A stretch of DNA of 64,000 bases, from the IMG/VR virus record IMGVR_UViG_3300031759_000002. The stretch is one strand, 5' to 3'. Shown one piece after another: positions 11-50,911 of the stretch. Positions within the stretch are counted from its first letter, which is position 1; each line of letters begins with the position of its first letter. The notes beneath the pieces were generated by a model. That model searched no databases. It had not been told where the DNA came from and saw nothing but the letters and a program-made list of their open reading frames with translations. This DNA is from a virus. Lineage: Duplodnaviria; Heunggongvirae; Uroviricota; Caudoviricetes. The translations under genes were made by a program, and so were the position numbers.

Positions 11-886
11 ATGTCTAATAAAAGAGTATCATATTCTCAATTTTCAACTTGGTTCAAATGCCCTAATAAATATTATAATGATTATATTCTAAATAAACGA
101 AAGTTTGAGGATACTCTTAATTTATCGTTTGGGACCGCAATTCACGAAACAATTCAACATTATTTAAAAACTTTGTATAATGAAGGAGAATCTCAAGCAG
201 CCTCTATAGATTTAAATACTATGTTTAAATCAGAGTTTCAACAGGAAATAGATAAGAAAAAAATCCCTCATACTAAAGCCGAATTGGATGAGTTTGTAGA
301 AGATGGACGTTTGATTTTGTCTGAGTTTATATTACCCGAAAATAGACGCCGATATTTCCCTCGTGATAAGTTTGAATTATTAGGAATTGAAACTGAAATC
401 AATGAAGCAATATTTAATAAGTTGAATGTTACTTCATTTTTAGATTTAGTTCTTAAGGAAAAACTATCGGGTAATATTAGAATCGTAGATTTTAAAACTT
501 CAGGCAGGGGATGGACTTCTGAAAAAGAAGATTTTACAAAATTGGCACAGCTTCGTTTATATAAAGCATTATATAGTAAGAAATATAATATTCCTTTAAG
601 TAAAATAAATGTTGAGTTTTTTATATTAAAACGAAAGACCTATGAAAATGCAAATTATCCTCAAACTAGGTTGAATGTATTTGTTCCGTCGTCTCATAAA
701 GCAGATATCGATGAAACCTTACAAGAGTTTTCTAAGTTTGTTAATGAATGTTTTAATAAGGATGGGGAATATTTGACTGATAAAACATATCCTAAAATTC
801 CCGGATTAAAAAAGAAAAATTGCAAATATTGCCAATATGCTAAAGATGGTACTTGCGACCAAAAAGCAAGTAAGATTATTTTGTAA
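11..886 (+). CDS. PD-(D/E)XK exonuclease, Cas4/RecB-like, with N-terminal Cys plus C-terminal CxxCx5C cluster (putative Fe-S)
   Basis: N-terminal SYSQFSTWFKCPNKYY. D...VDFKTS (D..ExK-like) core. C-terminal CKYCQYAKDGTC, three Cys plus one early Cys, as in the Cas4/AddB nuclease family. Confidence 0.55.
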   Translation: MSNKRVSYSQFSTWFKCPNKYYNDYILNKRKFEDTLNLSFGTAIHETIQHYLKTLYNEGESQAASIDLNTMFKSEFQQEIDKKKIPHTKAELDEFVEDGRLILSEFILPENRRRYFPRDKFELLGIETEINEAIFNKLNVTSFLDLVLKEKLSGNIRIVDFKTSGRGWTSEKEDFTKLAQLRLYKALYSKKYNIPLSKINVEFFILKRKTYENANYPQTRLNVFVPSSHKADIDETLQEFSKFVNECFNKDGEYLTDKTYPKIPGLKKKNCKYCQYAKDGTCDQKASKIIL

Positions 887-6590: not shown

Positions 6591-6632
6591 AATAACTTTA
6601 CAGTAAAAATAAACCTGATATAATATAGTGAA

Positions 6633-10175: not shown

Positions 10176-10961
10176 ATGGAACATAAAATATATAAATTAC
10201 AAAATAAAATAAATGGAAAATTATACATAGGAAGAACTAAAAATACATTAAATGTTCGTATGAAGACTCATAGGAGTCCATATTCTAATTCATATTTATC
10301 ACGAGCATTACGAAAATACGGAGAACATAATTTTAGTAAAGAAATTATATATACTACTAATAATTTTATAGATGTATGTGAAAAAGAAAAGACTTTTATA
10401 TTAAAATATAATTCATTGGCTCCTACTGGATATAACCTAAATTTAGGAACATATGGAAATGAAGTTATGAGTGAAATTACAAAAAATACATTAAGTAAGT
10501 TAAATCAAGGAAATCATTCTAAAAATAAAAATTCATCATCTAAGTATATAGGAGTTCATCAACGCCGGGACGTAAAAGGAGATACTCATTTTGAGGTTAA
10601 AATATATAAGAATAAAAAGAATTATCGTCATTATTTTCATTCTGAAATTGAAGCTGCTGAGGCATATGATAAAGTTGCTCTCTATTTATATGGGTTAAAC
10701 TGTAAACTTAATTTTTCAGATAAATTATCAGTTTATAGAAATATAAACTTAAAACAATTTTTTATAGAGTTTTGTAAAAAATTTAAGTCTTCTTCCCAAT
10801 ATACTGGAGTATGCAAATCTACTAAAAGAAGTAAACTTCCTTGGAGATCTTATGTTTATATAAATAGAAAATATATTGAATTAGGAACATTTTTAACAGA
10901 AGAAGAAGCATATAATGCTAGAAAAAAATATTTAGAAGAACATAAATTAAATAATGATTAA
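10176..10961 (+). CDS. GIY-YIG homing endonuclease with two AP2-type DNA-binding domains
   Basis: N-terminal KIYKLQNKINGKLYIGRTKN...RMKTHR is a GIY-YIG core. YIGVHQRRDVKGDTHFEVKIY...EIEAAEAYDKVALYLYGLNCKLNF and YTGVCK...WRSYVYI...LGTFLTEEEAYNARKKY are AP2-like. Confidence 0.7.
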   Translation: MEHKIYKLQNKINGKLYIGRTKNTLNVRMKTHRSPYSNSYLSRALRKYGEHNFSKEIIYTTNNFIDVCEKEKTFILKYNSLAPTGYNLNLGTYGNEVMSEITKNTLSKLNQGNHSKNKNSSSKYIGVHQRRDVKGDTHFEVKIYKNKKNYRHYFHSEIEAAEAYDKVALYLYGLNCKLNFSDKLSVYRNINLKQFFIEFCKKFKSSSQYTGVCKSTKRSKLPWRSYVYINRKYIELGTFLTEEEAYNARKKYLEEHKLNND

Positions 10962-30122: not shown

Positions 30123-30608
30123 TTACGATTTCTTTAATAATTTTGGATTTTCAAATATATTACCTATAATTGTAGCGTTTTTCATTTGAATTGCCCGTTC
30201 TAAATCAACAGTATATGTTCCATATTCATCCCCATCATCCGATGCCGATATTAAATCAAAAGAAGCATTGTAATATCTTACCCTATAATTATGCTTATAT
30301 GACTTGTCTTGGTCAGATACCAAGATATCACCTTCATAGATTTCTCTCTTTTTGAAATCTTTCAAGCCGGTAAATTGTTGCAATATATAACGTGGTTTTT
30401 TCACCGCTTTTAGATTTTTAATATATAAATTAGGATTTTTATTTTGAGAATAAGTTGGCTCAATACCTAATGTTCCTATATAATCAATTATTTCTCCGGT
30501 AAAAGTATCAATCGACCAATTAGAAAAACAATGTAAAGATGAACTGTTTTCTACAAATATTTGATTTTGATTATCCCAGATTCTAAATTTTATGATTCTT
30601 TGTTTCAT
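30123..30608 (-). CDS. YopX-family phage protein
   Basis: KFRIWDNQNQ..., IYEGDIL, C-terminal IGNIFENPKLL. Confidence 0.55.
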   Translation of the reverse strand: MKQRIIKFRIWDNQNQIFVENSSSLHCFSNWSIDTFTGEIIDYIGTLGIEPTYSQNKNPNLYIKNLKAVKKPRYILQQFTGLKDFKKREIYEGDILVSDQDKSYKHNYRVRYYNASFDLISASDDGDEYGTYTVDLERAIQMKNATIIGNIFENPKLLKKS

Positions 30609-31014
30609 TATTTTTTAAAATGTCATGGGTTGGGTTTCTATATATTCTATTAAATCCAAACAATCAATGCATAAATCTTGTATATATCTTGCACCATCTG
30701 CTCCATCATAATTATCACGGTCTCCCGATAATATTCTTTCGGCTTCTTGTAATCTATGATTTACTTGTTCTTTTAAATCTGTTAAATATTGTTGTGTCAT
30801 ATATTCCATTTTATATCTTCTTTTTTAAAATAAGCGTTTAATACTGATTTTCCCTCTACTAAGAAAGTTAATAAATCAGTCTCTGCATTTATTTTTTCAG
30901 CCCTTAATTCTCCATTTTCATTCATACAATATGATTTAATATCGAATGCTACTACAAACTTTTTACCGGTAGTTTTTCCTATATTAAGTTTAGGATTTTT
31001 ATTTTGAAAATACA

Positions 31015-31476
31015 TCATAATTTTGATATAAATAAAACTTCATTAAACTCGATAGTATCTGGTCGTTGGTATTTACCTATCATATTTTCTATAACGTGGG
31101 AAGGAACATTCCTACCACCCGAAGCAGCACGTTTAGCATTTCTCTCAATTGCAGTTTCTTTAGTAACTTCAAACACAACCGCAACCGTTTTAGAATTATT
31201 ATCCTTGGCTATATCAAGGAAATCTTTGCGTGTTTTACGATACATATTAGTTGCATCGATTATCACCGAATGACCTTCATTAAGGTATTCTTGTAATCGT
31301 TTACGAGCAATAGAAAATGCTTTTCCTGATACTGATTGGTCGGTTGCATCTCCCGATAATTCTTCTCTAATATCATCGGTGGATATTACACATTCAGCAT
31401 TATGATTCTCACATTTTGATGCCCAAGTTGATTTTCCACTGGATGGGCAGCCTACAAGGATATACACAGTTGTCAT
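31015..31476 (-). CDS. polynucleotide 5'-kinase (T4 Pnk kinase-domain homologue, AAA_33) without a phosphatase domain
   Basis: VGCPSSGKSTWAS versus T4 Pnk GCPGSGKSTWA. VIIDATNMYRKTR versus ISDTNLNPERR. AIERNAKRAASGGRNVPSHVIENM versus [21 protein letters not shown]. GC is higher than in neighbouring genes. Confidence 0.65.
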   Translation of the reverse strand: MTTVYILVGCPSSGKSTWASKCENHNAECVISTDDIREELSGDATDQSVSGKAFSIARKRLQEYLNEGHSVIIDATNMYRKTRKDFLDIAKDNNSKTVAVVFEVTKETAIERNAKRAASGGRNVPSHVIENMIGKYQRPDTIEFNEVLFISKL

Positions 31477-31521
31477 GTTATTTTATTGGATTTCTTGGTT
31501 GTGGATTGATATTTATATTAC

Positions 31522-32388
31522 ATGAATACAATACCACAGAATAAATTAAATGTCAATGAAAAGTTTATGCGAAAATGTCCGTTATGTAATATTGACATAT
31601 TTCATTCTAATAAATATAATTGTAATATTGCAGATAAAAAACAACAAATATGTAGAATGTGTAATATGAAAAAAAGGTCTGTTCAATATATTGGAATGGG
31701 AAATCCGTTTTATGGAAAAAAACATTCTAAAAAAACAATAGAAAAAATATTAAAAAATAGAGATATTTCTATATGGAAAACTGACGGATTTCGTAAAAAA
31801 ATGAGCGACGTAACATCGGGGAAAAATAATCCTATGTACGGAAAATCTGTTTATGATATTTGGTTTAAAAAATATGGAAAAGAAATTGCCGACCAGAAAC
31901 AATTGGAAGCAAGTAAGAAAAAATCTAAAAATAGTTCCGGTAAAAATAATCCTATGTACGGCAAACCATCTCCTAAAGGTTCTGGACAAGGTTGGAAAGG
32001 TTATTATAAAAAACATTTTTTTAGAAGCCTTAGAGAGTTGTCATATATGATATATTTGGATGAAAATAATATAAAATGGAAAAGTGCCGAATTAAAAATA
32101 TATTCTACTGAATATATTGATTATAAAGGAACTTCACGGACAACTAGACCGGATTTTATCTTAAATACTAATGAACTTATAGAAATTAAACCATTAAGAT
32201 TACATACAAGCCCATCAGTAATTACTAAGAAAATAGCAATGGAACAATTTTGTAAATTAAATAATTATTCATATAAACTAATGGATTTTGAAATAAATAT
32301 TTCTAAAATTAAAAATGAACTTGAAAATGGAAATGTAGAGTTTATTAAAAATTATAGAGAAAAGTTTTTAAATTATATCAATAAATAA
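31522..32388 (+). CDS. homing-endonuclease-like protein: N-terminal Cys4 finger, NUMOD3 repeats, C-terminal PD-(D/E)XK-like domain
   Basis: CPLCN...CRMCN. Three G(K/M)xNPxYGK NUMOD3 repeats. C-terminal RPDFIL...ELIEIKP is a PD...ExK pattern. Confidence 0.5.
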   Translation: MNTIPQNKLNVNEKFMRKCPLCNIDIFHSNKYNCNIADKKQQICRMCNMKKRSVQYIGMGNPFYGKKHSKKTIEKILKNRDISIWKTDGFRKKMSDVTSGKNNPMYGKSVYDIWFKKYGKEIADQKQLEASKKKSKNSSGKNNPMYGKPSPKGSGQGWKGYYKKHFFRSLRELSYMIYLDENNIKWKSAELKIYSTEYIDYKGTSRTTRPDFILNTNELIEIKPLRLHTSPSVITKKIAMEQFCKLNNYSYKLMDFEINISKIKNELENGNVEFIKNYREKFLNYINK

Positions 32389-32391
32389 TAA

Positions 32392-32422
32392 AAAAGCCAC
32401 CCGATTAAGAGTGGCTTGTCCG
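32392..32422. terminator. bidirectional hairpin terminator: aagccac-ccgattaaga-gtggctt
   Basis: 7-bp perfect stem between convergent genes. A-run upstream and T-rich downstream. Confidence 0.5.
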
Positions 32423-32436
32423 TTTAGTGTAACCTT

Positions 32437-32682
32437 TTATTGAAAACGGTAATTGGCATACTTTCGGTTATATTCCATACCAAATGACTTCAAATGGAGA
32501 ATAGAGTTCTTGTGAAACTTCAATGGCATTCCATTGCTTACAGGTTTAACTGTAACGTATTGGTCCGATACATTCAGCACATTAACTGTGCCAGAATAGT
32601 TCTTAGTAGTCAAGGAAACAAATGCTCCTTGAGTATTATTGATGATGTTATTTATTCTTCGATAATTCATAGTATTATTCAT
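32437..32682 (-). CDS. hypothetical protein
   Basis: ORF only. Confidence 0.3.
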   Translation of the reverse strand: MNNTMNYRRINNIINNTQGAFVSLTTKNYSGTVNVLNVSDQYVTVKPVSNGMPLKFHKNSILHLKSFGMEYNRKYANYRFQ

Positions 32683-32726
32683 AATTTAGTTTATATTATA
32701 TCAGATTTTTAAGAATTGTCAAGTAC

Positions 32727-33743
32727 TTATTTTGCCGATGTTCCAAGGTTAAGCAACATTGGAGAACTTTCGGGTAGAATGTTTTCTGGTAACTTGCCAT
32801 TCCAATTAGTAGCCATTGCCATTTTGGCTTGGGCTTCGATTAGGGCAATCTGTAACTGATTTCTAAATAATGCGGCTTCCTTAGCAGCGGCAAGTTTAGT
32901 TGCAGCATCAACTTGAGCCTGAGCCGTTGATACTATGATTGCATTTTCATTGGAATTGACTAATACCTTGGTAGCATTACGAGTAATGGTAGCCAATTGT
33001 TCCATTTGAGCGGTTTTATTATCTTGTTGTTTAACAAAACTTTCGTTGATACTATCTTGGATTTTACTATCTTTAAAATGCCAACCTTCTGCATTTCCTA
33101 AATATTGAATAGTAATACCTTTATTTTTAAATGTAGCCGCCGCATCTTGGAATAAATTGGAATATATTTCAGATTGCTTAGATTGAAACTCAGTTAGAGT
33201 TAATGACGAAACCTGACGATTTAATTCAGCAACTGCAAAACTACGAATGTTTTGGTCGGTGACATCGGCTAATGTTCGTTCACCGTGATAATATAAATAA
33301 GTGCTGGCGTCATCTTCTTCGATGTTTGCAGTAATGGTAAGTCCAATAATCAATCCGATATTATCTTTGGTATTAACCGGAATACCTTCGCTTTTACCAG
33401 TTGTTCCAGTTTCTTTATTATCGGTCCATTCCCGAGTAACCAATGAACGGTCAACGGTAATAACACGGACAGCATCAATCCATTCATAATCAAACCACAT
33501 ACGACCAGTTGACCGTACAACCTTATCAATCATAATTCGTTTTGATGCAACTTTTCGTTGATTCAAAAAATCAACCGAATTAAACTTTGCTTGTCCTGAT
33601 TGACTCAATGTATCAAGTGGAATTACCCAGCAAGTTTCATTTGGTTTAATTTCTTTAGGAGTTTGAACTTTAGCAGGTCCACATCCAGTTAGTGTCGCTG
33701 CAATGCCAATAGCAAGCAGCCCGATGAGTAGTTGTTTTTTCAT
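32727..33743 (-). CDS. SPFH (band-7/stomatin/prohibitin-like) domain lipoprotein
   Basis: Lipobox LAIGIAATLTGCG. Long coiled A/Q/E-rich C-terminus typical of SPFH proteins. GC above local background. Confidence 0.5.
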   Translation of the reverse strand: MKKQLLIGLLAIGIAATLTGCGPAKVQTPKEIKPNETCWVIPLDTLSQSGQAKFNSVDFLNQRKVASKRIMIDKVVRSTGRMWFDYEWIDAVRVITVDRSLVTREWTDNKETGTTGKSEGIPVNTKDNIGLIIGLTITANIEEDDASTYLYYHGERTLADVTDQNIRSFAVAELNRQVSSLTLTEFQSKQSEIYSNLFQDAAATFKNKGITIQYLGNAEGWHFKDSKIQDSINESFVKQQDNKTAQMEQLATITRNATKVLVNSNENAIIVSTAQAQVDAATKLAAAKEAALFRNQLQIALIEAQAKMAMATNWNGKLPENILPESSPMLLNLGTSAK

Positions 33744-33749
33744 AAATTG

Positions 33750-34004
33750 TTAATTATTTTGTTTATTATATTTAATCATAAATTGTATCCAAATAATAGA
33801 TAAAATCACAGCACAAGACCACCAGATTAAATCGTTAATTTCACCATCACGGACAAACTTAGCCCATCCATAATTACCTACGCTATCATTTAAACTATTA
33901 GCAGTGGCAAGTCCAGTAATAGGAGAATAGAAGAAGTTAATTGTTTTATCAAGTGTTAAAGATAAAAACACAGTTATTGCACTAAGCATAATTCGTAATT
34001 TCAT
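33750..34004 (-). CDS. small membrane protein
   Basis: Two hydrophobic segments. Confidence 0.35.
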   Translation of the reverse strand: MKLRIMLSAITVFLSLTLDKTINFFYSPITGLATANSLNDSVGNYGWAKFVRDGEINDLIWWSCAVILSIIWIQFMIKYNKQNN

Positions 34005-34024
34005 AATGAACGGAGTATATCAGG

Positions 34025-34423
34025 TTATAGATTATTGTCAATGACTTTTTGAGCCGAAGTTAAAACGGATAGAATATTTTGTTTTCCCATATAATTCATA
34101 CTATGAATATAATATTCTGGTAATTTTAATTTGTTTTCAATACAATATTCTGCCATAAATATAGCGGCATGATATCCGGTTTTTTCTTTAATGTTATTAT
34201 AATTTATATTTTTATCAGTATCATTGGCTCTATGATATTCTTGATAATGTTCCATACAAAGGTCATGATCAAAACTAACGATATTAATATTGTTATTTAA
34301 AACAGCATTTACAAACTCATTATAAGTTCTAACAATGGTCCATTCCACCAATGGTAATTCTATCCAATATACATGTCTTGGAAGACGTTCATCATCTAAA
34401 AATAAATTAATTTTTTTCTTCAT
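34025..34423 (-). CDS. hypothetical protein
   Basis: ORF only. Confidence 0.3.
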   Translation of the reverse strand: MKKKINLFLDDERLPRHVYWIELPLVEWTIVRTYNEFVNAVLNNNINIVSFDHDLCMEHYQEYHRANDTDKNINYNNIKEKTGYHAAIFMAEYCIENKLKLPEYYIHSMNYMGKQNILSVLTSAQKVIDNNL

Positions 34424-37673: not shown

Positions 37674-38095
37674 ATGGAAGACCCCGATTATCTTGGGAAG
37701 AAACTTGTCTGCGTCTGGCATATGATATTGCCAAATATAGAAGTGAAGACCCTTACGTTCAAGTAGGTGCATGTGCTTTAAAAAAGAATGGAAATGATTT
37801 TGCATTGGGATATAATGGAGCATTACCTAAACATGATATAGATTGGTCAGATAGAGATGAACGAAGAAAACGAGTAGTTCACGGAGAAGCCAATGTATTA
37901 AATAGAATATTACCATATGAAGTTGAGTTTTTAGCAGTTACTCATTTACCTTGTCCCGAATGTATTAAAATTATTGGTTATAAACAAATATCGAAAGTAT
38001 ATTATTGTGAAGAGATGGAAAAATACCCCAATGAACTTACCAAGCAACTTGCTAAAGAATGGAACATTGAACTAATACAGATGAATATTAAATAG
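37670..38095 (+). CDS. dCMP deaminase (CDA-fold zinc deaminase)
   Basis: VHGEANVLNRI (HxE) and LAVTHLPCPECIKII (PCxxC). Confidence 0.7.
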   Translation: MNGRPRLSWEETCLRLAYDIAKYRSEDPYVQVGACALKKNGNDFALGYNGALPKHDIDWSDRDERRKRVVHGEANVLNRILPYEVEFLAVTHLPCPECIKIIGYKQISKVYYCEEMEKYPNELTKQLAKEWNIELIQMNIK

Positions 38096-39038
38096 GATAT
38101 ATTAATGCCCAACCTTTGGAAGTAAATATTTTATTATTTATTAGTTTATATAAACTATCAATACAAAGATTTGCTTTTAATTTTAATTCGTGTCTAGTTC
38201 CTACAAATATTTCGCCAGTTTTGTTATGGATAAAATTATAAATAGTATTATCAAATGCGTGATTTTCCTTCCCTCTATATTTTCCAGTTCTTGATTTACT
38301 AAGTTTTTGTTTTGTTTCCTTGGACATGTGAGTTCCTTTCATTGGAGATCCATATTTTTTGATCCGTTCTCTTGTCGCAATTCCAACTGCTAATCTATGT
38401 TCCAAAGAAATAATTTTACCTCTATTGGCATCGCTCATTTTTTGTTTGGCTTCATCTGTATGTCTATACCCAGTATGAACTTTGCTTAATTTTTTACGAG
38501 ATTCCTTTGTCCATACTCTGTTTTTATTTGATGCTCTAACACATTCTCGCATATAATCAGTTACTTCTAATCTATCGGCTATAAACTGTATGTTATATAC
38601 ATTATCTATTTCTGATTTTGCTATATCTAAATATCTTTGTTCTACAATTTTTAATAATTCTATAGGAACATATTCTATAATCATTATATAAAAATTATCT
38701 TCTCCAAATTTGTTCCATGCTCTTTGAAGATGTCTGTTTCTGTGTTTTTTAGATTTTAGTGCCCATAAATGACCATATTTAATTCTAATTCTAATATTTT
38801 TAGCACTTCCTATATAGTATTTGTTATTTGTTTTATTTATTATTTTGTATATTCCACTTTTTTTTGTTATAGTATCGTCGCATATTTTTAATATTGATTT
38901 TTCTTTTGTGTTTATTATAGTATCTATTTCCTCTGGCACGTTGCTGTTCGAGTAATTCTTCTCTGGTTCTATATAACTTTTTTCTTCCCATATTTTTTCT
39001 TTCTCTTGACTTTGGTTTAATTTTGATGTATCATTCAT
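38088..39038 (-). CDS. GIY-YIG homing endonuclease (I-TevI/Seg-like) with NUMOD3 repeats
   Basis: SGIYKIINKTNNKYYIGSAKNIRIRIKYGH...NRHLQRAWNKFGEDNF. C-terminal IYNFIHNKTGEIFVGTRHEL. The catalytic domain starts about 60 aa into the ORF. Confidence 0.65.
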   Translation of the reverse strand: MNDTSKLNQSQEKEKIWEEKSYIEPEKNYSNSNVPEEIDTIINTKEKSILKICDDTITKKSGIYKIINKTNNKYYIGSAKNIRIRIKYGHLWALKSKKHRNRHLQRAWNKFGEDNFYIMIIEYVPIELLKIVEQRYLDIAKSEIDNVYNIQFIADRLEVTDYMRECVRASNKNRVWTKESRKKLSKVHTGYRHTDEAKQKMSDANRGKIISLEHRLAVGIATRERIKKYGSPMKGTHMSKETKQKLSKSRTGKYRGKENHAFDNTIYNFIHNKTGEIFVGTRHELKLKANLCIDSLYKLINNKIFTSKGWALIYPI

Positions 39039-40535: not shown

Positions 40536-41810
40536 GAGTCAGAAAGCCCCTTCGGCTTTAGCCAAGGGGATGAATGACGACCATATTAAGGAAACAGAAA
40601 TAAAATAACATTTTCCTTAAAGTGGATGATATGTATGTTATAGAATGAAAGTAAAACGCAATTACAAGTTCAAATTGTCTCCCAAAGGAGGCAGTGCTAT
40701 CCGTCTCCAAGAGACGCTGAATACTTGTCGCTACGTTTATAACCAACTCCTTGAGAAGCGAAACGACCACTACAAGAAGACCAAGAAAACTTTAACTCAC
40801 TTTGATTGTTGTAAAATAATTAAGGATATGGAACTGAAAACTCCAGTCCATTCGCAAGTCCTCCAAAACGTATCTGCCCGACTTGACCTTGCCTATCTTG
40901 GGTTCTTCCGCAGATTGAAGGATAAGAGTGGAAAAGCAGGTTTCCCACGCTTTAAGTCCTATGACCGGTATGACTCCTTCACCTTTCCACAGACAGGATT
41001 TAAGATAGGAAAGAAGAAAATGTGGATGTCCAAGATTGGAGACGTTCGTATTAACTTCCACCGACCAATGGAAGGCAAGGTAAAGACCTTGACCATTAAG
41101 CGTGAAGGCACACATTGGTATGCTATTTTCTCGTGTGAAGTTGAAGTGAAGATTGAAAAACGAAAATGGAAACGAGCAGTTGGGATTGATGTTGGATGTA
41201 TTGACTTTGTGACCTGTTCGGATGGAACCACTATTCCTAATCCTCATTTTCTTAAACAATCACAGGAGAAACTTTCCAAAGTCCAAGGTAAGTATTCCAA
41301 ACTGAAACTTAAACCGAAGGATGACAAGACGAAGATAAAGACCAAGAGAGAATTGGTTAAACTCCATTGTAGAGTGAAGAACCAACGAAAAGATTTCCTA
41401 CACAAGTTGAGCAAGAAACTAGTGAACGAGTATTCTCATATTTGTGTGGAAGATATTCGACCAAGCCAAATGTTGAATGACAATTGGCGAGCGTTGAATA
41501 GAAGCATATTGGACTCGGGTTGGGCAGCATTTAGACAAATGCTCCATAGTAAAGCGGTAGAAGCTGGCTGTGAAGTAGTAAATGTTGACCCACGATACAC
41601 GACCCAAATATGCTCGGGATGCGGAACCATTGTTAAGAAAGAGTTGTCAGAAAGACAACACAAATGTCCTATTTGTAATCTTAACATTGGTAGGGATTTG
41701 AATGCTGCAAGAAATATTTTAAGAGTCGGAATGGACTCTTTTTCTAACGCAAGTTAGGATAGAAGCCCAACCTCTTTAGAGGTTGGGAGCATTCACAGCC
41801 TCTTTTCTTT
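40536..41810 (+). mobile_element. IS200/IS605-family element carrying only tnpB (IS1341-like). GC-rich relative to the phage. Hairpin-rich LE (40543..40570) and RE hairpin cccaacctc-ttta-gaggttggg (41766..41787).
   Basis: Abrupt GC jump. Subterminal hairpins at both ends. Inserted intergenically between 40270..40491 and 41813..41975. Confidence 0.6.
40645..41757 (+). CDS. tnpB: TnpB (OrfB_IS605) RuvC-like RNA-guided nuclease
   Basis: RuvC-I GIDVGCIDF, RuvC-II ICVEDI, Zn finger CSGCG...CPICN, RuvC-III GRDLNAARNI. Confidence 0.9.
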   Translation: MKVKRNYKFKLSPKGGSAIRLQETLNTCRYVYNQLLEKRNDHYKKTKKTLTHFDCCKIIKDMELKTPVHSQVLQNVSARLDLAYLGFFRRLKDKSGKAGFPRFKSYDRYDSFTFPQTGFKIGKKKMWMSKIGDVRINFHRPMEGKVKTLTIKREGTHWYAIFSCEVEVKIEKRKWKRAVGIDVGCIDFVTCSDGTTIPNPHFLKQSQEKLSKVQGKYSKLKLKPKDDKTKIKTKRELVKLHCRVKNQRKDFLHKLSKKLVNEYSHICVEDIRPSQMLNDNWRALNRSILDSGWAAFRQMLHSKAVEAGCEVVNVDPRYTTQICSGCGTIVKKELSERQHKCPICNLNIGRDLNAARNILRVGMDSFSNAS

Positions 41811-41978: not shown

Positions 41979-42593
41979 TTAAGCAACAACCAATTCCTTA
42001 GAAGGATAATAATTCGTTCCGAGTTGGGTATTATTAGGATATTGAGTTTTAACAATATCCAAGATTTCGGCACAAGTCCAGCCATTACATTTGATGGCGG
42101 CACGGATTTGTTCGATAGAAACTTGTTTCCCTGTATGACTATCCAAATAATTAGACACCTTAGATTCTACTTCTTGTTTGGATTTCTTATTTACCGTAAC
42201 CGATTGAGATGTAGGTGTAAAAGGAGGATTTGTAATTGTAACATTTGCCACAGGCGAACTTACGATGGAGACTGGAGGTTGGGTAGGAGTAGTCACAGTA
42301 GCGGTGTATTCATTATATACTCCGTTGTATTGGCTACTAACATCAAGTCCAATTTCGGCGAAAATGCCATCGGACAACAATTCCAAAAATGCAGTTTTCA
42401 CCGACTTATGAGGAATGTTATATTTATATTGTCCAATTTGATTTTCAAACTCTGGCAGATTAAGATTGCCAGCATTTGCCTTATTTCGCAATGCCACAGT
42501 AGTATCGTGGATTGAGAACGTGGTTGAGTTATTGGCAAACTCTTGAACTTGAGTCAAGATTGCCTTGTTTAGATTTGAGTTTTTATCACACAT
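41979..42593 (-). CDS. hypothetical protein (T/P/S-rich middle, moderately elevated GC)
   Basis: ORF with a consensus promoter 33 nt upstream. Confidence 0.4.
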   Translation of the reverse strand: MCDKNSNLNKAILTQVQEFANNSTTFSIHDTTVALRNKANAGNLNLPEFENQIGQYKYNIPHKSVKTAFLELLSDGIFAEIGLDVSSQYNGVYNEYTATVTTPTQPPVSIVSSPVANVTITNPPFTPTSQSVTVNKKSKQEVESKVSNYLDSHTGKQVSIEQIRAAIKCNGWTCAEILDIVKTQYPNNTQLGTNYYPSKELVVA

Positions 42594-42625: not shown

Positions 42626-42653
42626 AGTATATAGATGATAGATTGGAAGTCAA
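42626..42653 (-). promoter_or_regulatory. consensus promoter TTGACT-N16-TATACT
   Basis: Minus strand: aaCTTGACTtccaatctatcatctaTATACT. Confidence 0.55.
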
Positions 42654-43126
42654 GTTAAATATCCAAGTACGCCATATTGAGTTTTGACATTTGGTATTCC
42701 AAACTTCTTTTTTAATATGATGATTTCATCTTCCATTGACATATTAAAATTACATAATACATTATGAATATCACCATCAATCATTTCAAACTCATAAGTT
42801 TCGTCTGTAGGATGGTATCCATATCCTTTGATATTTGGAATATAAATATCATAATCTTTTAAATGTTTAGGAGAATATTCTGTATATGGATTATATAGTT
42901 TTTCATTTAATTCGGTATATACATTAAGTTTAATCTTTTTTGTTATAGATGGAACTTCCACTTCAATGATAGGATTTCCACACATAGAACAATAATTGCT
43001 ATGTGACAATATTTTATATTTTTCACATTTATTCCAAGCACATCCTTTAATAACAATCGTGGTGTATAACTCAGGATTATATATTTTGATATAAGGTCCA
43101 ACATAAGTATTATAACTTGTACTCAT
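42650..43126 (-). CDS. hypothetical protein
   Basis: ORF only. Confidence 0.35.
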   Translation of the reverse strand: MSTSYNTYVGPYIKIYNPELYTTIVIKGCAWNKCEKYKILSHSNYCSMCGNPIIEVEVPSITKKIKLNVYTELNEKLYNPYTEYSPKHLKDYDIYIPNIKGYGYHPTDETYEFEMIDGDIHNVLCNFNMSMEDEIIILKKKFGIPNVKTQYGVLGYLT

Positions 43127-43925: not shown

Positions 43926-43953
43926 AGTATATCGAAGATTTATAAAAAGTCAA
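43926..43953 (-). promoter_or_regulatory. consensus promoter TTGACT-N16-TATACT, 6 nt upstream of ATG 43919
   Basis: Minus strand: tacTTGACTttttataaatcttcgaTATACTcataagATG. Confidence 0.55.
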
Positions 43954-43956
43954 GTA

Positions 43957-44817
43957 TTAAACAATTTTCCATTTATATTCTAACTCTTTTACGGGACATT
44001 TCCCTATAAGTTTAAAAAATTCTTCTACTTGAGTATCACTTAGTTTTAATAAATATGACTGAGTTCCATCTTTTCGAATTCCTTTCTTTGATAGTGTAAA
44101 TTTAAGATTAAATTCGTTCTTTAATTTTACACATAACCATTCTAAATCTTTTTTTGTAAAATTATTTGTGCAAAAAAATACTCGTGTATATTTATACTCG
44201 GTTGTTTTGTACCGCTGTTTGTAAAAATATGAATATCCATCATCCAAAAACCAATGTAATAAACTTTCCTTTGTTAAAACAATATCTTTCGGTATAATCT
44301 TGATTCCATTCGGATACCATTTATTTCGCAATTCGGCTATTTCTGGTAATTTAAATGTATTTAGAAAATATACTGGCTTTCCATTTGGAGTTAGGTTTGT
44401 AGAAGATTCATATGGACCAAAAATTCTTGATTCTGGGATTTTTGTCAATATTTTAGAGGCAAAATATAATAGATGATTATAATGGATATTTCGTTTGGAT
44501 ATTCCACAACTTCCATTTTTTATACGTTGTTTAGTAATAAACGCATCTCCTAGAAGAGATCCATTGATTACTGGCATATTTAGTTTTAAATAATTAACAT
44601 TAGCATTGCGTTTACGTTCACTATAACTTCGCATCGGAATATTAAATTTTTTAAGATTTCTACTAATCGTTGCTCCGTTCGCACAGCCTACTAACTTGGC
44701 AATTTTTTCTGTATTTAATTTTTCAACTAAATATTTCTGATATAGCCATTCTTTATTATTTAATAATGGAAATGGTGATGTATCTTTAGTAAATTGTTTT
44801 TTATTCATATCCTTCAA
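43957..44817 (-). CDS. LAGLIDADG homing endonuclease (double-motif) with an N-terminal HTH
   Basis: LLGDAFITKQ and WFLDDGYSYF LAGLIDADG-type motifs. N-terminal EKIAKLVGCANGATISRNLKKFNIP is HTH-like. Confidence 0.55.
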   Translation of the reverse strand: MKDMNKKQFTKDTSPFPLLNNKEWLYQKYLVEKLNTEKIAKLVGCANGATISRNLKKFNIPMRSYSERKRNANVNYLKLNMPVINGSLLGDAFITKQRIKNGSCGISKRNIHYNHLLYFASKILTKIPESRIFGPYESSTNLTPNGKPVYFLNTFKLPEIAELRNKWYPNGIKIIPKDIVLTKESLLHWFLDDGYSYFYKQRYKTTEYKYTRVFFCTNNFTKKDLEWLCVKLKNEFNLKFTLSKKGIRKDGTQSYLLKLSDTQVEEFFKLIGKCPVKELEYKWKIV

Positions 44818-44866
44818 TGGTTAATATTCTAACTATAAATATCTAACACTTGACGAATAATTCTAA

Positions 44867-46141
44867 TTATTTACACTCTAATAAATAATTGATTTTTACT
44901 CTATTTTCAGAATAAACAATTAATTCATCGTTTTTCAATCTATTTGAAGAAGCCTTGGCCCAAATACTATCATAATTAGTCGGACGTTTACATCCATATG
45001 CCGTAGTGGTATATGTTTTACCCATTGCGAATGAGCATATAAATAAAAATGCTGCATCACCTACTCCACCTTGAGACCATTTGTTTAAACAATATCCTAA
45101 ACTTTTTGTACTATTAACCGACCCATAAATTCCATTATCGAATAATTTTCCGGCTATGGCTGCTGTAGATGGAGGATTAATTTTTAATCCACTTTTCAAT
45201 ATTGAAAGAACGTTTGCCATTGAACTTCCGTGGAAGGTTTCCACTATGTTTGGATCAGTGTGTAAAAAGTTTGAAGTCATTGTGTTAATATCAACTTTAT
45301 ACATTTCCTTTACTCTAATATTATCATATCCATGCATTGACTTCTTTGATTTTTCAAAAAAATTATTAAGCCTAGATCTTTCATTATTATCATTTAATAT
45401 ATCTAAATTAACTTTAAATACTTCCTCTGTTGTCTGATTTTGCGGTAAAGATTGAGAAGTTGGTTGAAGTGCTTGATATGACGCACTTAAAGAATCTAAG
45501 ATGTCTAATTGTTCTTGTAAAGCCTCATTATTAGGAATTATAGTTATTGGCTGGATTTTTTTCATACCTAAACTTTGAGGTATTATAGTAAGATATTTAA
45601 ATACTAGTTTATTAAATTCATTATTAAACCTGTTTTGATTTACTAAAGTTGATATGTCGGCTAATATTAAACGGGCCTCATCTATTCCATATTTATCGAT
45701 TAATCCGAGTGGTGTACTAAATAATCCAGTAGTTGAATTATATGTAATTTGAGTGCTACTGGTAATCTTATGAATATTAGAATCTACCAAGCGTTTAATT
45801 AAACGCTCAAGAATTGGATTGGAAGTTTTAATAATTTGTTTCTTGGCAATTTCTAATAAATCGGAGTTTTTCACCGTAACTGATGGAGTGGATGAAGCAG
45901 TTGCCGACCCAATGGTTTTTTGTTCTACATAGCCTTTTTTTAATTTTTCAGACACTTTCTTGTTAAAATATTTCTCGCCACCATCCCATTCTCCGCTTTG
46001 AGGGTGCTCCGCACCGACCCTCGCATATTGAATTTTTACTTTTCCATCATCATATAGTTGAGCATTCCACCATTTATACGAATTAGTTTCGTCGTTTTGC
46101 TCCAAAAAGATCAATCTCGCTTCTTTAATTAAGTTACTCAT
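44867..46141 (-). CDS. WGR-domain poly/mono-ADP-ribose polymerase (PARP catalytic H-Y-E)
   Basis: N-terminal WGR: KWWNAQLYDDGKVKIQYARVGAE...KKGYVE. C-terminal FHGSSMANVLSILKSGL (H-G-S), GIYGSVNSTKSLGYC (Tyr), NDELIVYSE (Glu). Confidence 0.6.
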   Translation of the reverse strand: MSNLIKEARLIFLEQNDETNSYKWWNAQLYDDGKVKIQYARVGAEHPQSGEWDGGEKYFNKKVSEKLKKGYVEQKTIGSATASSTPSVTVKNSDLLEIAKKQIIKTSNPILERLIKRLVDSNIHKITSSTQITYNSTTGLFSTPLGLIDKYGIDEARLILADISTLVNQNRFNNEFNKLVFKYLTIIPQSLGMKKIQPITIIPNNEALQEQLDILDSLSASYQALQPTSQSLPQNQTTEEVFKVNLDILNDNNERSRLNNFFEKSKKSMHGYDNIRVKEMYKVDINTMTSNFLHTDPNIVETFHGSSMANVLSILKSGLKINPPSTAAIAGKLFDNGIYGSVNSTKSLGYCLNKWSQGGVGDAAFLFICSFAMGKTYTTTAYGCKRPTNYDSIWAKASSNRLKNDELIVYSENRVKINYLLECK

Positions 46142-46145
46142 AGTA

Positions 46146-46283
46146 TTATATATTTTTTGTTAATTCTAAGTTAACTTCAATTGAAGTTTTACCAGTAAAA
46201 AGGATTTGTAATGAATTGCGTAAAAACTCAAATGCTTGTGAAAATCTATTTCCTTTAAACTTTAATTTTATTTTTTTTGTCAT
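46146..46283 (-). CDS. small 45-aa ORF cotranscribed with and coupled to the PARP gene (TAAtactATG)
   Basis: Manual translation: MTKKIKLKFKGNRFSQAFEFLRNSLQILFTGKTSIEVNLELTKNI. Leaderless start 6 nt after the -10. Confidence 0.3.
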   Translation of the reverse strand: MTKKIKLKFKGNRFSQAFEFLRNSLQILFTGKTSIEVNLELTKNI

Positions 46284-46289
46284 AACCAC

Positions 46290-46317
46290 ATTATAGTGAT
46301 TATAGAATTGAAGTCAA
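46290..46317 (-). promoter_or_regulatory. consensus promoter TTGACT-N16-TATAAT driving the small ORF plus PARP
   Basis: Minus strand: tccTTGACTtcaattctataatcacTATAATgtggttATG. Confidence 0.55.
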
Positions 46318-46325
46318 GGAGAAGT

Positions 46326-46538
46326 TTAATTGAAGAAAAACGCAAAGGTATGTTTGATTATGGATATGTTGAGTTGTTGACAAATCATCCATTTAGCAAT
46401 AGTAATAGGAGTGAAAATATAATCCATAATCGACCAGAATAATGGCCAGTTACTATTTGCCGCAACGTTAATGTTATAACCTACCATTGCCACGGCTATA
46501 CAGAATATAGAGTAAATAATCGCACTTAGTTTTTTCAT
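46326..46538 (-). CDS. small membrane protein
   Basis: Two hydrophobic segments. Confidence 0.3.
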   Translation of the reverse strand: MKKLSAIIYSIFCIAVAMVGYNINVAANSNWPLFWSIMDYIFTPITIAKWMICQQLNISIIKHTFAFFFN

Positions 46539-46571
46539 AGTAATAGAAGTATATAGGAGTTTTATAAAATG

Positions 46572-46841
46572 TCAAGGATTAACTATTGCCGCAGTAATTG
46601 GTTTGTCATTTGGTATTAGTTGTTTCATAATTTCCGAATGCGGCACCATAATAGTTATGATTTTAACTGCTTCAAACTCATTAGTATCTTGGTATTCTTT
46701 TAATTTTTCATTTAACCAACAAAATGGATTTTCATTATACCCATATTCATCCATCGCTTCCAATACTTCAGGAGCATATTCTCCGTCATATTTTTCTTTT
46801 CGTTGTCCTATAAGGAGATGTATATTCATAATGTTTAACAT
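46572..46841 (-). CDS. hypothetical acidic protein (likely start at second Met, 46829)
   Basis: The -10 box overlaps the first ATG. The second ATG is 10 nt downstream of the -10. Confidence 0.35.
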   Translation of the reverse strand: MLNIMNIHLLIGQRKEKYDGEYAPEVLEAMDEYGYNENPFCWLNEKLKEYQDTNEFEAVKIITIMVPHSEIMKQLIPNDKPITAAIVNP

Positions 46842-46867
46842 TATATCCTAATCTGATTGATTGTCAA
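46840..46867 (-). promoter_or_regulatory. consensus promoter TTGACA-N16-TATAAT, 22 nt from the first CRISPR repeat
   Basis: Minus strand: gataTTGACAatcaatcagattaggaTATAATgttaaacattATG. Confidence 0.55.
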
Positions 46868-46889
46868 TATCAAAATCACACTTCTCTTT

Positions 46890-47141
46890 GTGTCATTAAA
46901 TAATAATTTGTTTATCATCTAACACTCGGTGTTGCTGTCGCCTGACGGTTCCGTTTACGTTGTGTCATTAAATAATAATTTGTTTATCATCTAACACATT
47001 TGATAATTATGGACTTACATATAAACCATATTTGTGTCATTAAATAATAATTTGTTTATCATCTAACACTTCACCCTTCATCGTATATATTACTCCATCA
47101 CTGGTGTGTCATTAAAGAAGCAAATGTGGATTTAATCACAT
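46890..47141 (+). CRISPR. orphan CRISPR mini-array: three identical 36-bp repeats (GTGTCATTAAATAATAATTTGTTTATCATCTAACAC) plus one degenerate terminal repeat, with three unique 36-bp spacers
   Basis: R1 46890..46925, S1 46926..46961, R2 46962..46997, S2 46998..47033, R3 47034..47069, S3 47070..47105, degenerate R4 47106..47141 (first 11 nt identical, about 22/36 overall). Exact 72-bp periodicity. Repeat termini GTGT...ACAC. No cas gene in the window. Confidence 0.75.
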
Positions 47142-47146
47142 TCATT

Positions 47147-47632
47147 TTAATTATTTAAATAAAATCTAACAAGTTTATAATAATCTAATTTCTTTTGAAC
47201 TTTCAAATCGGACATATTATGTTGTAAATCCGCCAGTTTAACTATTCTGGAAAATAGGTTAGATTTAATATTATCCAAATAAATAAATAAATCAAAATCT
47301 TTATTTGATTTTGTTAAATACATTACATTATTAACTATAAATTGATAATGTGAAGTAAGCGGCTGAATATCACGAATCAATTCTAATTCTGTAAGATTCG
47401 TGTCTTCAATTGTATCGTGAAGATATGCAATACTGCGAATAATTTCAATATTTTCATTTATTTCAGATTCCAGCATAATTGAACTTTTAAGTTCGTTTTT
47501 TAAGATTTCCTCTGAAATATTTGCAACTGCAATCGGATGAGTTATATATGGTAAACGACATCCATATTTTCTATATTGACCGTCGTGCGCTTTCGTCGCT
47601 ATTTCTAATATTTTATCGCTATAATTATTCAT
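47147..47632 (-). CDS. RelA/SpoT-type HD-domain hydrolase (small alarmone hydrolase / Mesh1-like)
   Basis: AHDGQYRKYG...PYITHPIAVA...LHDTIEDT matches the SpoT hydrolase signature (HD...ED). Confidence 0.65.
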   Translation of the reverse strand: MNNYSDKILEIATKAHDGQYRKYGCRLPYITHPIAVANISEEILKNELKSSIMLESEINENIEIIRSIAYLHDTIEDTNLTELELIRDIQPLTSHYQFIVNNVMYLTKSNKDFDLFIYLDNIKSNLFSRIVKLADLQHNMSDLKVQKKLDYYKLVRFYLNN

Positions 47633-48301: not shown

Positions 48302-48685
48302 TTATCCCTGAGTTTGTATGTATTTTTTGATTGTTTCTGGAGATGCTTCCCCAATGGAACAAACGAAGTATCCATCAGAGAATAGAGTATTTTCCTTCCA
48401 ATAATGCCCTTTGAGAAATGCTCTATGTTTTTTGTATATTCTAAATGTTGAAATGGACTTGAAGTTATTCATCATTTCTAATACCGACTTTGTAGGAGGA
48501 TAGTCAACCATTAGGTGTATGTGGTCATCGTCCGTCTCCATTGCTTTGATGATAATATCCTTCTCATTAGCAATATCATACATAATCTGCTTCAAGTCAT
48601 CACTCAATGCTCCCGACAATATCTTTTTACGATATTTAGTTGAAAAAACTAAATGGAATTGGAGCAGATACTTGCTATGGCTCAT
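48302..48685 (-). CDS. tnpA: IS200-like Y1 (HuH) transposase TnpA
   Basis: HuH motif HIHLMV. Catalytic Tyr region DGYFVCSIGEAS. Typical length of about 130 aa. Confidence 0.85.
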   Translation of the reverse strand: MSHSKYLLQFHLVFSTKYRKKILSGALSDDLKQIMYDIANEKDIIIKAMETDDDHIHLMVDYPPTKSVLEMMNNFKSISTFRIYKKHRAFLKGHYWKENTLFSDGYFVCSIGEASPETIKKYIQTQG

Positions 48686-49292: not shown

Positions 49293-49778
49293 ATGAAACA
49301 CAAGAGAAATTTTTGTAAATGTGGAAAAGAAAAAGACGTGCGGTCTAATTGGTGTCGTGATTGTTTTTGTATTCTTTATAAAAACGGAGAAATTGAAATA
49401 TTGACCGAAAAAACAAGAGAAACAATGAGAAATAAACAACGGCATTTGCCTCCCTTTCGTTCCTTATATAATTTTCTTCTAAATTCTCAAAAACATAGAA
49501 CGAAAAATATTATTGTAGATTTAACTTTTGATGAATTTCTTGAATTAACAAAAATTTCCAATTGTCATTATTGTGGGGAATTAGTTAAATGGGAACCATA
49601 TCGAAAGGTAGGTGCCACCTGTGCTTATAATTTAGATAGGAAAAATAATAAAATTGGTTATACAAAAGAAAACTGTGTAGTTTGCTGTAAGGGATGTAAT
49701 ATGTTAAAATCATATTTTGATGATAACGAATTCCTTTCACGAATACAAAAAATATCCAAAAATCTAAAACTATGTTGA
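49293..49778 (+). CDS. HNH-like zinc-finger nuclease (variant: DR in place of DH)
   Basis: CHYCGELV...NLDRKNNKIGYTKENCVVCCKGCNMLK. Confidence 0.4.
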   Translation: MKHKRNFCKCGKEKDVRSNWCRDCFCILYKNGEIEILTEKTRETMRNKQRHLPPFRSLYNFLLNSQKHRTKNIIVDLTFDEFLELTKISNCHYCGELVKWEPYRKVGATCAYNLDRKNNKIGYTKENCVVCCKGCNMLKSYFDDNEFLSRIQKISKNLKLC

Positions 49779-50911
49779 GTTACAATACCACACTTTTAGG
49801 AGATTGTCAAGAACTGAAAAAGTTGCTTGAATACGAAAGGTTTGTATTCAACCTTGCTTCCAAGGAACAACTACCAGAAACAAAGAACTCTCTTGTAGTT
49901 CTTCACTCCAAAGTGTATAAAAATGTTCGTAAGTCAAATCCAGAAATCCCATCCCAAGTAATAATCAAAGCAGAACAAGAAGTTCTTGCTTCCTATCGGT
50001 CTGCGAAATCCAATAAGCATAAGAAAACTCTCATTGTAAAAAAGAACCTCTCAATGAGATTGGATAAACGACTTTACTCAATCCCAGATAAGTTTTCTAT
50101 TCGCATCACGACCACAGGAAAACGACAGACCTTCAAGTTTGTTGTCTATCCACGACTGAAAGAGTTGATGGAAAAATACGCATACCAAGACCCTCTAATA
50201 TATGTGGATAATGATAAAGTATGTATCGCTTTCTCTTTTGAAAACAAAGTTGAAAAACTCAAACAACGATTGGCATTAGGAGTGGACATCGGCATCCGTA
50301 GGAGTGCTGCTTGTTCGGATGGGCGACTTATTATTGATAAGAAGTTCAACGGTGAAAAACGAAGATTGAGATACTTGAAAGACAAACTCAAATCCAAGGG
50401 AACGAAGAGTGCCCGTAGGAAACTTCGTTATTCGTTACGAAGAAAAGAACGAAACAAGAACAAGAACCAAACCCATCTAATTTCCAATGCCGTTCTCCGA
50501 ACGGAAGCCGATACAATTTGTCTTGAAAACCTCAAGAGCATAAAAAGAAAGAAACACAAATACCAAAATAAAAGAAGTATATCACAAGTTCCAATGTTTG
50601 AACTCCGTAGAGTAATAACCTATAAGGCACAGAACCAAGGTAAAACTGTTCTGTTTGTTTGCCCTTCCTATACATCACAACGAGACTCGGTAACGGGTAA
50701 AGTCGAAGGTGAAAGAAGAGGTTGTAGATTTTACTCTAAAGTAAATGGAATGATATATGACTCGGACATCAATGCTGCTATCAACATTGGAAAAATGTCC
50801 AAACATCCCGTATCACAGACCACAAATCTGACTTATGGGCAGGCGTCAGTCAATACGCCATACGAATATAAGTCCCGCTCCTCGGGGCCGTTCAAGCACC
50901 TATCCCTTTAG
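49772..50911 (+). CDS. tnpB: TnpB-like RuvC nuclease (IS605/IS1341 family)
   Basis: RuvC-I LGVDIGIRRSAACSDG, RuvC-II ICLENL, RuvC-III DSDINAAINI. Degenerate Zn finger. The TAG stop lies inside the terminal hairpin. Confidence 0.8.
   Translation: MLSYNTTLLGDCQELKKLLEYERFVFNLASKEQLPETKNSLVVLHSKVYKNVRKSNPEIPSQVIIKAEQEVLASYRSAKSNKHKKTLIVKKNLSMRLDKRLYSIPDKFSIRITTTGKRQTFKFVVYPRLKELMEKYAYQDPLIYVDNDKVCIAFSFENKVEKLKQRLALGVDIGIRRSAACSDGRLIIDKKFNGEKRRLRYLKDKLKSKGTKSARRKLRYSLRRKERNKNKNQTHLISNAVLRTEADTICLENLKSIKRKKHKYQNKRSISQVPMFELRRVITYKAQNQGKTVLFVCPSYTSQRDSVTGKVEGERRGCRFYSKVNGMIYDSDINAAINIGKMSKHPVSQTTNLTYGQASVNTPYEYKSRSSGPFKHLSL

Follow-up and report, generated by a model that had tools for sequence, protein, structure and literature searches.

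Poly(ADP-ribose) polymerases (PARPs) of the PARP1-3 type are central to eukaryotic DNA repair; among their prokaryotic counterparts, only two bacterial enzymes have been assayed. These are HaPARP from Herpetosiphon aurantiacus (A9B244) and CdPARP from Clostridioides difficile CD160 (T3DQ72), compact proteins of ~420-450 aa in which a WGR domain, a helical regulatory domain (PARP_reg) and a catalytic domain (PARP_cat) with an H-Y-E triad follow one another; both make poly(ADP-ribose) (PAR) in vitro, and HaPARP requires DNA (PMC4245714, PMC5966428, PMC8120803). As for phages, Perina in 2014 counted Aeromonas phage Aeh1 and Cellulophaga phage phi4:1 among the carriers of PARPs (PMC4245714), Iyer in 2021 reported PARPs in a few jumbo phages, citing the XacN1 protein (PMC7824862), and in 2022 placed PART/PARP among the most frequent viral ADP-ribosyltransferase (ART) families (PMC9503650); a 2024 survey of gut jumbo phages included 'PARP1' among NAD-dependent phage enzymes (PMC11662467). 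Here we describe a PARP gene (44867..46141, minus strand; 424 aa plus stop codon, ATG start) of an uncultivated T4-like jumbo phage, carried on a 64,000-nucleotide stretch of DNA from IMG/VR record IMGVR_UViG_3300031759_000002 (the window). Profile searches and a structural model identify its predicted product as a compact three-domain PARP of the DNA-dependent PARP1/2/3-type clade, composed of a WGR domain, an autoinhibitory domain of helices and an ART domain whose NAD+ site is complete.

The gene had first been singled out from the DNA letters alone, and that original prediction of a 424-aa protein with a PARP catalytic domain is borne out by Pfam PF00644, which matches aa 254-399 at 75 bits against a cutoff of 26.7 (E 7.6e-21) and also matches 66/66 relatives tested. 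The prediction had the protein consist of a WGR and a catalytic domain only and so omitted the helical regulatory domain (PARP_reg/HD; 45467..45865, minus strand, ~aa 93-225), which matches Pfam PF02877 over aa 131-220 (37.7 bits, cutoff 26.8), has six helices in the model and aligns with the HD of PARP1 and PARP2. The WGR domain (45908..46141, minus strand, ~aa 1-78) was correctly foreseen. The Pfam match of the query itself falls short (aa 12-75, 15.8 bits against a cutoff of 22, E 0.015), but the same profile matches 53 of the 66 relatives at E<=0.01, the best at 1.8e-8, and the domain is recovered in the comparison of the family profile with human PARP2 (E 8e-30) and in the AlphaFold2 model, where it forms four strands and one helix (block pLDDT, the predicted local distance difference test score, 81-94). 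Residues N20 and K23 belong to the NNNKY motif. The literal WGR motif reads Y39-A40-R41 in the query, the family consensus being W-G-R; its Arg, like N20, is invariant in the alignment of the 66 relatives. In bacterial PARPs, too, Tyr often replaces Trp in this motif and is the commonest residue at its first position (PMC5966428).

The ART catalytic domain (44870..45424, minus strand, ~aa 240-424) carries H304, G305, S306, Y339, K346, S347, Y350 and E406. A phmmer alignment with PARP1 pairs FHGSS with WHGSR, GIYG with GIYF, TKSLGYC with SKSANYC and NDELIVY with YNEYIVY, making H304 equivalent to H862, G305 to G863, Y339 to Y896, K346 to K903, S347 to S904, Y350 to Y907 and E406 to E988; the NAD+ site residues are thus identical between the two proteins. 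All seven are invariant across the 66 close relatives, so the claim of an intact H-Y-E triad holds for the family as well as for the query. In a more distant set of 139 aligned sequences (the query and 138 full-length representatives of 50%-identity clusters), Y339, K346 and Y350 never change (139/139), H304 and E406 are each retained in 138/139, and position 347 is Ser in 95 and Ala in 44. A pseudo-enzyme reading was rejected because the active site is invariant across the family.

Two features of the domain bear on the kind of product. The query is ~29 residues shorter than PARP1 in the segment matching PARP1 931-983, and its catalytic His and Glu lie 102 residues apart, compared with 126 in PARP1. 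The PAR-forming CdPARP has a spacing of 106 (H322/E428; PMC5966428), and this likeness is suggestive, but only suggestive, of PAR synthesis by the phage enzyme. The class of the phage PARP is H-Y-E, as had been claimed: no Alt or Mod family matches it in PHROG or Pfam, and it does not carry the R-S-E motif. T4 Alt, ModA and ModB are likewise phage-encoded, NAD+-using modifiers acting early in infection, but they belong to the R-S-E (cholera-toxin-like) class, carry out mono-ADP-ribosylation or RNAylation only and have neither WGR nor HD.

Neither of the two outcomes named beforehand as refuting the prediction came about: profiles do recover the WGR and PARP domains, the WGR at the level of family, profile and structure, and the H-Y-E positions do align with the catalytic residues. 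A structure prediction had been proposed as a check alongside the profile searches, and it agrees with them. The AlphaFold2 model (mean pLDDT 79) finds its best Foldseek matches in the Protein Data Bank (PDB) among WGR-to-catalytic chains of PARP1 (8g0h_D and 4dqy_C, E ~1e-22) and PARP2 (7aeo_A and 6x0l_P), all solved on DNA breaks; the alignments span ~485 columns at ~16-23% sequence identity. PARP2 is the best human match of the family profile, followed by PARP1 (3e-27), PARP3 (6e-19) and PARP4 (6e-16), and profile positions 7 to 419 align end to end with the WGR-to-catalytic chain of PARP2, including the NNNKY and WGRVG motifs. The WGR-HD-ART core is therefore common to the phage protein and to human PARP2, PARP1 and PARP3 (the DNA-dependent Clade 1). 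Compared with the human enzymes, the phage PARP lacks zinc fingers, the BRCT domain and the N-terminal tail in addition to the shortened segment, and no HPF1-like partner is known for it.

The family to which this protein belongs is large. A search of a large protein database gave 644 matches at E<=1e-5, the best 120 of which are 53-68% identical, 395-444 aa long and encoded on contigs as long as 364 kb. When the representatives of 50%-identity clusters were searched exhaustively, 2,226 clusters matched at E<=1e-3, 303 of them at E<=1e-30, and the best 150 clusters are mostly full-length proteins of ~400-460 aa. Relatives at least 44% identical were found on viral or metagenomic contigs only, among them 14 viral contigs of IMG/VR (44-57% identity). 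No close relative appeared among the 185,579 species-representative genomes of GTDB, a weak negative in that the scan used two peptide patterns only. Homologues occur in 16/50,697 GenBank phage records at 24-32% identity and 97-100% query coverage, and several are already named poly(ADP-ribose) polymerase; the phage PARP matches PHROG 23333 (phrog_23333). These annotated, full-length proteins come from large or jumbo phages: Xanthomonas phages XacN1 (BBA65562.1) and Xoo-sp13, Klebsiella phages FBKp34, 05F01 and KP13-16, Stenotrophomonas phages CM1 and RAS14, Cellulophaga phages phi4:1 and phi17:2, and Aeromonas phage Aeh1. The window protein stands apart from them in a clade found in metagenomes only (44-68% identity), which has a conserved promoter of its own and a characteristic neighbour, orf204. 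The original remark that a PARP is unusual in a phage is therefore right among isolates, and wrong if taken to mean that the finding is new, in view of the reports of 2014-2024 and the hundreds of metagenomic clusters. Phage PARPs are a known type already noted by specialists and do not constitute a new type of system; what the present analysis adds is the size of the clade, its conserved early promoter, the persistence of orf204 as a neighbour and the recognition of the 45-aa leader as a real gene. To judge by these numbers, the counts of prokaryotic PARPs published so far (28 in 2014, 72 in 2018) greatly understate their abundance on phage-like contigs.

Unlike HaPARP and CdPARP, the phage enzyme is encoded behind a predicted early phage promoter. 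The promoter that the original prediction placed before a 45-aa open reading frame (ORF) is present at 46290..46317 on the minus strand as TTGACT-16 nt-TATAAT (11/12), an element of sigma-70 type. Its -10 box ends 6 nt ahead of the ATG, at 46283, of orf45 (46146..46283, minus strand), which encodes a 45-aa basic protein, is the first gene of the unit and was called as a gene by the JGI. In the locus of the nearest relative, L025, the PARP is 68% identical and the promoter is conserved as CCTTGACTT...CTATACT-GTGGTT-ATG, with the GTGGTT spacer also kept. The orf45 of L025 has the same length and 71% amino acid identity, and the differences at the nucleotide level are distributed 12/1/21 over the three codon positions; 13 changes are synonymous and another 13 are mostly conservative. 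Because of this identity and the coding-type pattern of substitution, orf45 is, on comparative grounds, a real gene. It has no match in Pfam, PHROG or NCBIfam families and is not detectably conserved in loci more distant than L025, where the PARP lies directly behind the promoter with no orf45 between. The idea of orf45 as a conserved partner of the PARP was rejected accordingly, since it is kept only in the nearest relative. L025 has a paralogue of orf45 (472..582), ~50% identical across 37 aa, at a distance of ~600 nt on the upstream side, and a weak homologue is found inside a 76-aa gene in a further locus (L004 5321..5413); orf45 may belong to a small family of phage micro-proteins.

The junction between orf45 and the PARP gene reads as originally described, TAA(46148..46146)-tact-ATG(46141..46139), with a 4-nt gap. 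The gap is 13 nt in L025, and strict 4-nt coupling is not a family feature because orf45 is limited to the nearest relative. What recurs is the promoter: in 7/14 related loci TTGACT-N16-TAtaaT ends ~9 nt ahead of the PARP ATG itself. The window contains 27 near-consensus TTGACA-16/17-TATAAT promoters, 13 of which end 5-12 nt before the ATG of an ORF of at least 30 aa (examples start at 46867, 46575, 46317, 43953, 36226, 35977, 34041 and 28451 on the minus strand and at 6597 and 54221 on the plus strand). Shine-Dalgarno enrichment is absent from the window genes (11/104, compared with 9% at random positions), and their starts favour T at -1 and A at -3. Transcription by an E. coli-type RNA polymerase usually starts ~7 nt past the -10 box, so +1 would be expected on the A of the orf45 ATG. 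Because the same promoter geometry recurs across the window and before the PARP in related phages, early and leaderless or near-leaderless expression of the PARP unit is credible, and this phage seems, as a rule, to express its early genes without a leader or nearly so, which offers a clue to the host.

A two-gene leaderless operon, as first proposed, is thus right in its promoter, its orf45 and its tight junction, and less secure in its extent. No terminator-like site follows the PARP gene on the minus strand, and the next promoter of the same type downstream (43953..43926) stands before the next gene cluster. Directly downstream of the PARP lies a free-standing LAGLIDADG homing endonuclease gene (43957..44817, minus strand; Pfam PF03161, E 1.4e-25), to which the transcription unit may extend, in which case it need not be of two genes only; given the lack of a terminator-like site, the LAGLIDADG gene is probably co-transcribed with the PARP. 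It is absent from the corresponding site in L025, L004 and L006, a comparison that marks it as an insertion outside the ancestral module.

For the neighbours of the PARP, ORFs from 17 PARP loci, three of them near-duplicates, were clustered. The most persistent is orf204 (41979..42593, minus strand in the window), a homologue of which lies on the same strand downstream of the PARP in 13/17 loci (~11/15 without duplicates); the runner-up, a PNK3P-type polynucleotide kinase/3'-phosphatase, occurs in 7/17 and stands within a few kb of the PARP in L004, L012, L014-L017 and L020. In the orf204 product, a disordered linker rich in Pro, Ser and Thr connects two small domains that resemble winged helices. 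Its only Pfam match is a sub-threshold one to BrxL_N (E 5e-4), and searches of PHROG, NCBIfam and PDB sequences gave none. In the AlphaFold2 model (pLDDT 73) the N-terminal domain (aa 7-100) is helix-helix-helix-strand-strand and a helix/strand domain covers aa 139-203; Foldseek returned weak winged-helix matches only (PadR, Stn1, ESCRT-II; E >= 0.016) and none at E<=0.001, and we regard the protein as a tandem winged helix only tentatively. On the basis of synteny, orf204 is a candidate DNA-binding cofactor or target of the PARP. Between the two genes lies orf158 (42650..43126, minus strand), conserved in closer relatives, with tblastn matches in L006 and L007 (E 1e-17) and a 158-aa gene at the equivalent position of L025.

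Other genes of the phage touch on DNA ends and on NAD+. Enzymes of DNA ends encoded near the PARP include a PD-(D/E)XK nuclease and a Pnkp-like kinase and, just outside the window, a 648-aa NAD+-dependent LigA-type DNA ligase (L009 6379..8325, ~6-8 kb past the window end). The only NAD+ salvage function found on searching the window is a nicotinate/nicotinamide-mononucleotide adenylyltransferase-like (NMNAT-like) domain, C-terminal in a 370-aa protein (58393..59505, plus strand) and scoring below curated cutoffs (E 1.4e-11). Together with LigA and the PARP, this protein suggests an NAD+ economy of the phage. Genes for the erasers PARG (DUF2263), macrodomain, ARH and NADAR are lacking among the Pfam-annotated genes of the window, many small ORFs of which are unannotated; the bacterial hosts of HaPARP and CdPARP, in contrast, each have PARG. 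In a distant phage-like PARP locus (L024 1307..5751), genes for NAMPT (NadV), phosphoribosyl pyrophosphate (PRPP) synthetase and a NADAR-domain protein lie within a few kb, and in another, the locus of P0200, the PARP is near an HD-domain gene and a weak match to ADP-ribosylglycohydrolase (ARH).

We propose, with a probability of roughly 0.6, that the gene encodes an early-expressed, DNA-break-gated ADP-ribosyltransferase, probably PAR-forming, that would mark breaks during infection. In this scheme the host sigma-70-type RNA polymerase would transcribe the PARP unit early into a leaderless or near-leaderless mRNA, from which the PARP would be translated through re-initiation just past the orf45 stop codon. 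Its WGR domain would bind a DNA nick or end, as in PARP1/2/3, HaPARP and CdPARP; once bound, it would destabilise the helical domain so that the NAD+ pocket opens, and ADP-ribose, probably in chains, would be transferred to the enzyme itself and to proteins close by. The activating breaks could arise as host DNA is degraded, or could be the nicks and ends of intermediates formed when phage DNA replicates and recombines. The ADP-ribose marks would then flag break sites and regulate end processing or ligation, with orf204 as the possible DNA-binding cofactor or target. We infer the enzymatic activity, PAR synthesis, DNA dependence, targets and biological role of the phage PARP by analogy with the characterized enzymes.

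Several points weigh against this proposal. The WGR score of the query itself is under the Pfam cutoff, and its motif has Y and A in place of W and G. Relative to PARP1/2, ~29 residues on the acceptor side are lacking, which may affect activity. PARP3 and PARP4 retain the H-Y-E triad yet are mono-transferases, and H-Y-E is thus necessary but not sufficient for polymer formation. The link of orf204 to the PARP is one of synteny only, and its fold assignment is weak. With no eraser among the annotated genes, a reversible PAR cycle is not evident within the window; the transcription start, and hence the leaderless status, is deduced from spacing alone; and the literature searched holds no biochemical assay of any phage PARP.

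Four other explanations deserve consideration. The gene could encode a host-takeover transferase that, like T4 Alt, ModA and ModB, modifies RNA polymerase or translation factors early in infection, DNA breaks not being essential. Its surroundings, an early-type region in which the small genes each have a host-type promoter, fit such a role, as does the report in the literature that ARTs are most frequent in jumbo phages without an RNA polymerase of their own. However, the protein is of the H-Y-E class and not of the R-S-E class of Alt and Mod, and it has kept both its WGR and its autoinhibitory helical domain, with N20, K23 and R41 invariant or nearly so; such strong conservation of the key residues of these domains would be puzzling in an enzyme that had no use for DNA sensing, and we regard this explanation as unlikely, though worth keeping in view.

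A second explanation, which we consider decidedly doubtful, is that the enzyme is a DNA-end modifier or mono-transferase similar to PARP3 or PARP2, placing ADP-ribose on the terminal phosphates of DNA or single units on proteins. PARP1-3 modify DNA ends, the phage protein has a minimal PARP2/3-type architecture with PARP2 as its best profile match, and its acceptor-side segment is shortened. On this reading, modified ends and nicks of the phage genome would be protected against exonucleases or defence nucleases of the host, or kept from being ligated where they should not be. That nucleic acids can be reversibly ADP-ribosylated is established (PMC8385414), and the NADAR-domain gene near the PARP of the distant L024 is a possible eraser of such marks. 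Against this, the assayed bacterial enzymes, whose spacing is equally compact, form PAR on protein, there is no direct evidence of DNA modification by any prokaryotic PARP, and the annotated window genes include no eraser.

Break-triggered hyperactivation could also serve as an NAD+ drain, depleting the NAD+ of the host and thereby shutting down its metabolism or excluding superinfecting or competing phages. PARP hyperactivation does deplete NAD+ in eukaryotes, and the NAD+-related genes of the phage (the NMNAT-like gene at 58393..59505 and the NAD+-dependent ligase past the window) and the NAMPT and PRPP synthetase genes at distant PARP loci could be accommodated. But the phage's own LigA requires NAD+, an autoinhibited, break-gated enzyme would be a poor constitutive NADase, and phages with NAD+ salvage genes are thought to preserve NAD+ (PMC11662467), all of which makes such a drain very improbable. 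Finally, a functionless passenger gene recently captured from a bacterium or eukaryote, which the older literature might suggest in presuming viral PARPs to be probably acquired from hosts (PMC4245714), is effectively excluded by the conservation data: over 120 relatives that are 53-68% identical, 303 clusters (50% identity) that score E<=1e-30, an invariant active site, a promoter and neighbours conserved across loci of 44-68% identity, no close relative in 185,579 species-representative genomes (two peptide patterns only), and a GC content near the gene (~29%) that is the same as in the rest of the window.

Taking the break-gated enzyme as the preferred explanation, a bolder and in our view improbable extension would have the PARP, orf204 and orf45 form a phage-specific early module that senses breaks, writes PAR on a DNA-binding partner or on DNA ends and so controls the fate of host or phage DNA, with large uncultivated phages perhaps the main prokaryotic reservoir and vector of WGR-HD-ART PARPs. 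Were they such a reservoir, this would bear on the spread of the WGR-HD-ART architecture between bacteria and eukaryotes. The clade in any case provides a tractable model for break-sensing ADP-ribosylation in phage infection, with an enzyme of ~420 aa, an early promoter, a candidate partner in orf204 and hundreds of variants.

The exact PARP protein is carried by JGI metagenome contig Ga0316229_1000015 (JGI 3300032676; 353,817 bp), of which the window covers positions ~284,284 to 348,283. A T4-type family B DNA polymerase is found in the window (best match in Microcystis phage Mel-JY01, 38%), together with a clamp-loader-like AAA+ protein, an SNF2 helicase, glycosyltransferases, a deoxycytidine monophosphate (dCMP) deaminase, several homing endonucleases and IS200/IS605 genes. 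A megablast search of 44000..47000 against GenBank phages gave no match and hence no cultured close relative. GC content is 28-34% across the window, with no local deviation around the PARP gene. Homing endonuclease genes elsewhere in the window lie at 38088..39038 (GIY-YIG/NUMOD3), 31522..32388 (NUMOD3), 26209..26835 (HNH) and 10176..10961 (GIY-YIG). IS200/IS605-type genes are found on either side of the PARP region at 40645..41757 (plus strand), 48302..48685 (minus strand) and 49772..50911 (plus strand), a set comprising a canonical TnpB, a Y1 TnpA and a second, more divergent TnpB-like gene.

A gene cluster at 27429..34423 on the minus strand resembles an RNA-repair or cyclic-phosphate module. 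Its members include a PTH2 peptidyl-tRNA hydrolase, two calcineurin-like phosphoesterases (28572..29216 and 29408..30088), a Pnkp-like P-loop kinase (31015..31476), an SPFH/Band-7 protein (32727..33743) and a cREC_REC domain protein (34025..34423). On the plus strand are genes for an R2K-type ATP-grasp protein (56280..57158) and an EF-Ts homologue (57474..58142), and a small SpoT/RelA-like HD hydrolase-domain protein is encoded ~1 kb upstream of the PARP (47147..47632, minus strand).

A CRISPR-like mini-array (46889..47141) is located ~750 nt upstream of the PARP unit. It consists of three perfect 37-nt repeats (TGTGTCATTAAATAATAATTTGTTTATCATCTAACAC) starting at 46889, 46961 and 47033, a degenerate fourth at 47105, and three unique 35-nt spacers, the first of which has 54% GC in a genome of 29% GC. 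Read on the minus strand, the repeat forms a hairpin (-8.9 kcal/mol, z = -3.6). Tandem Repeats Finder did not detect the array, and no cas gene was recognised adjoining it; the repeat has no exact match in IMG/VR or JGI metagenomes, and spacer 1 has none in GTDB genomes. The TnpB-like 379-aa gene at 49772..50911, with a Cas12f1-like_TNB domain only, lies 2.6 kb from the array.

The window also encodes a tRNA with a CUA anticodon, an amber suppressor (28041..28115, minus strand; Rfam tRNA 63.6 bits, encoded CCA end). No convincing case of in-frame TAG recoding was seen within the window, the late genes lying outside it. TAG is the rarest stop codon of the window genes (6/104), and the suppressor tRNA has its own promoter, TTGACA-16-TATATT, at 28154.

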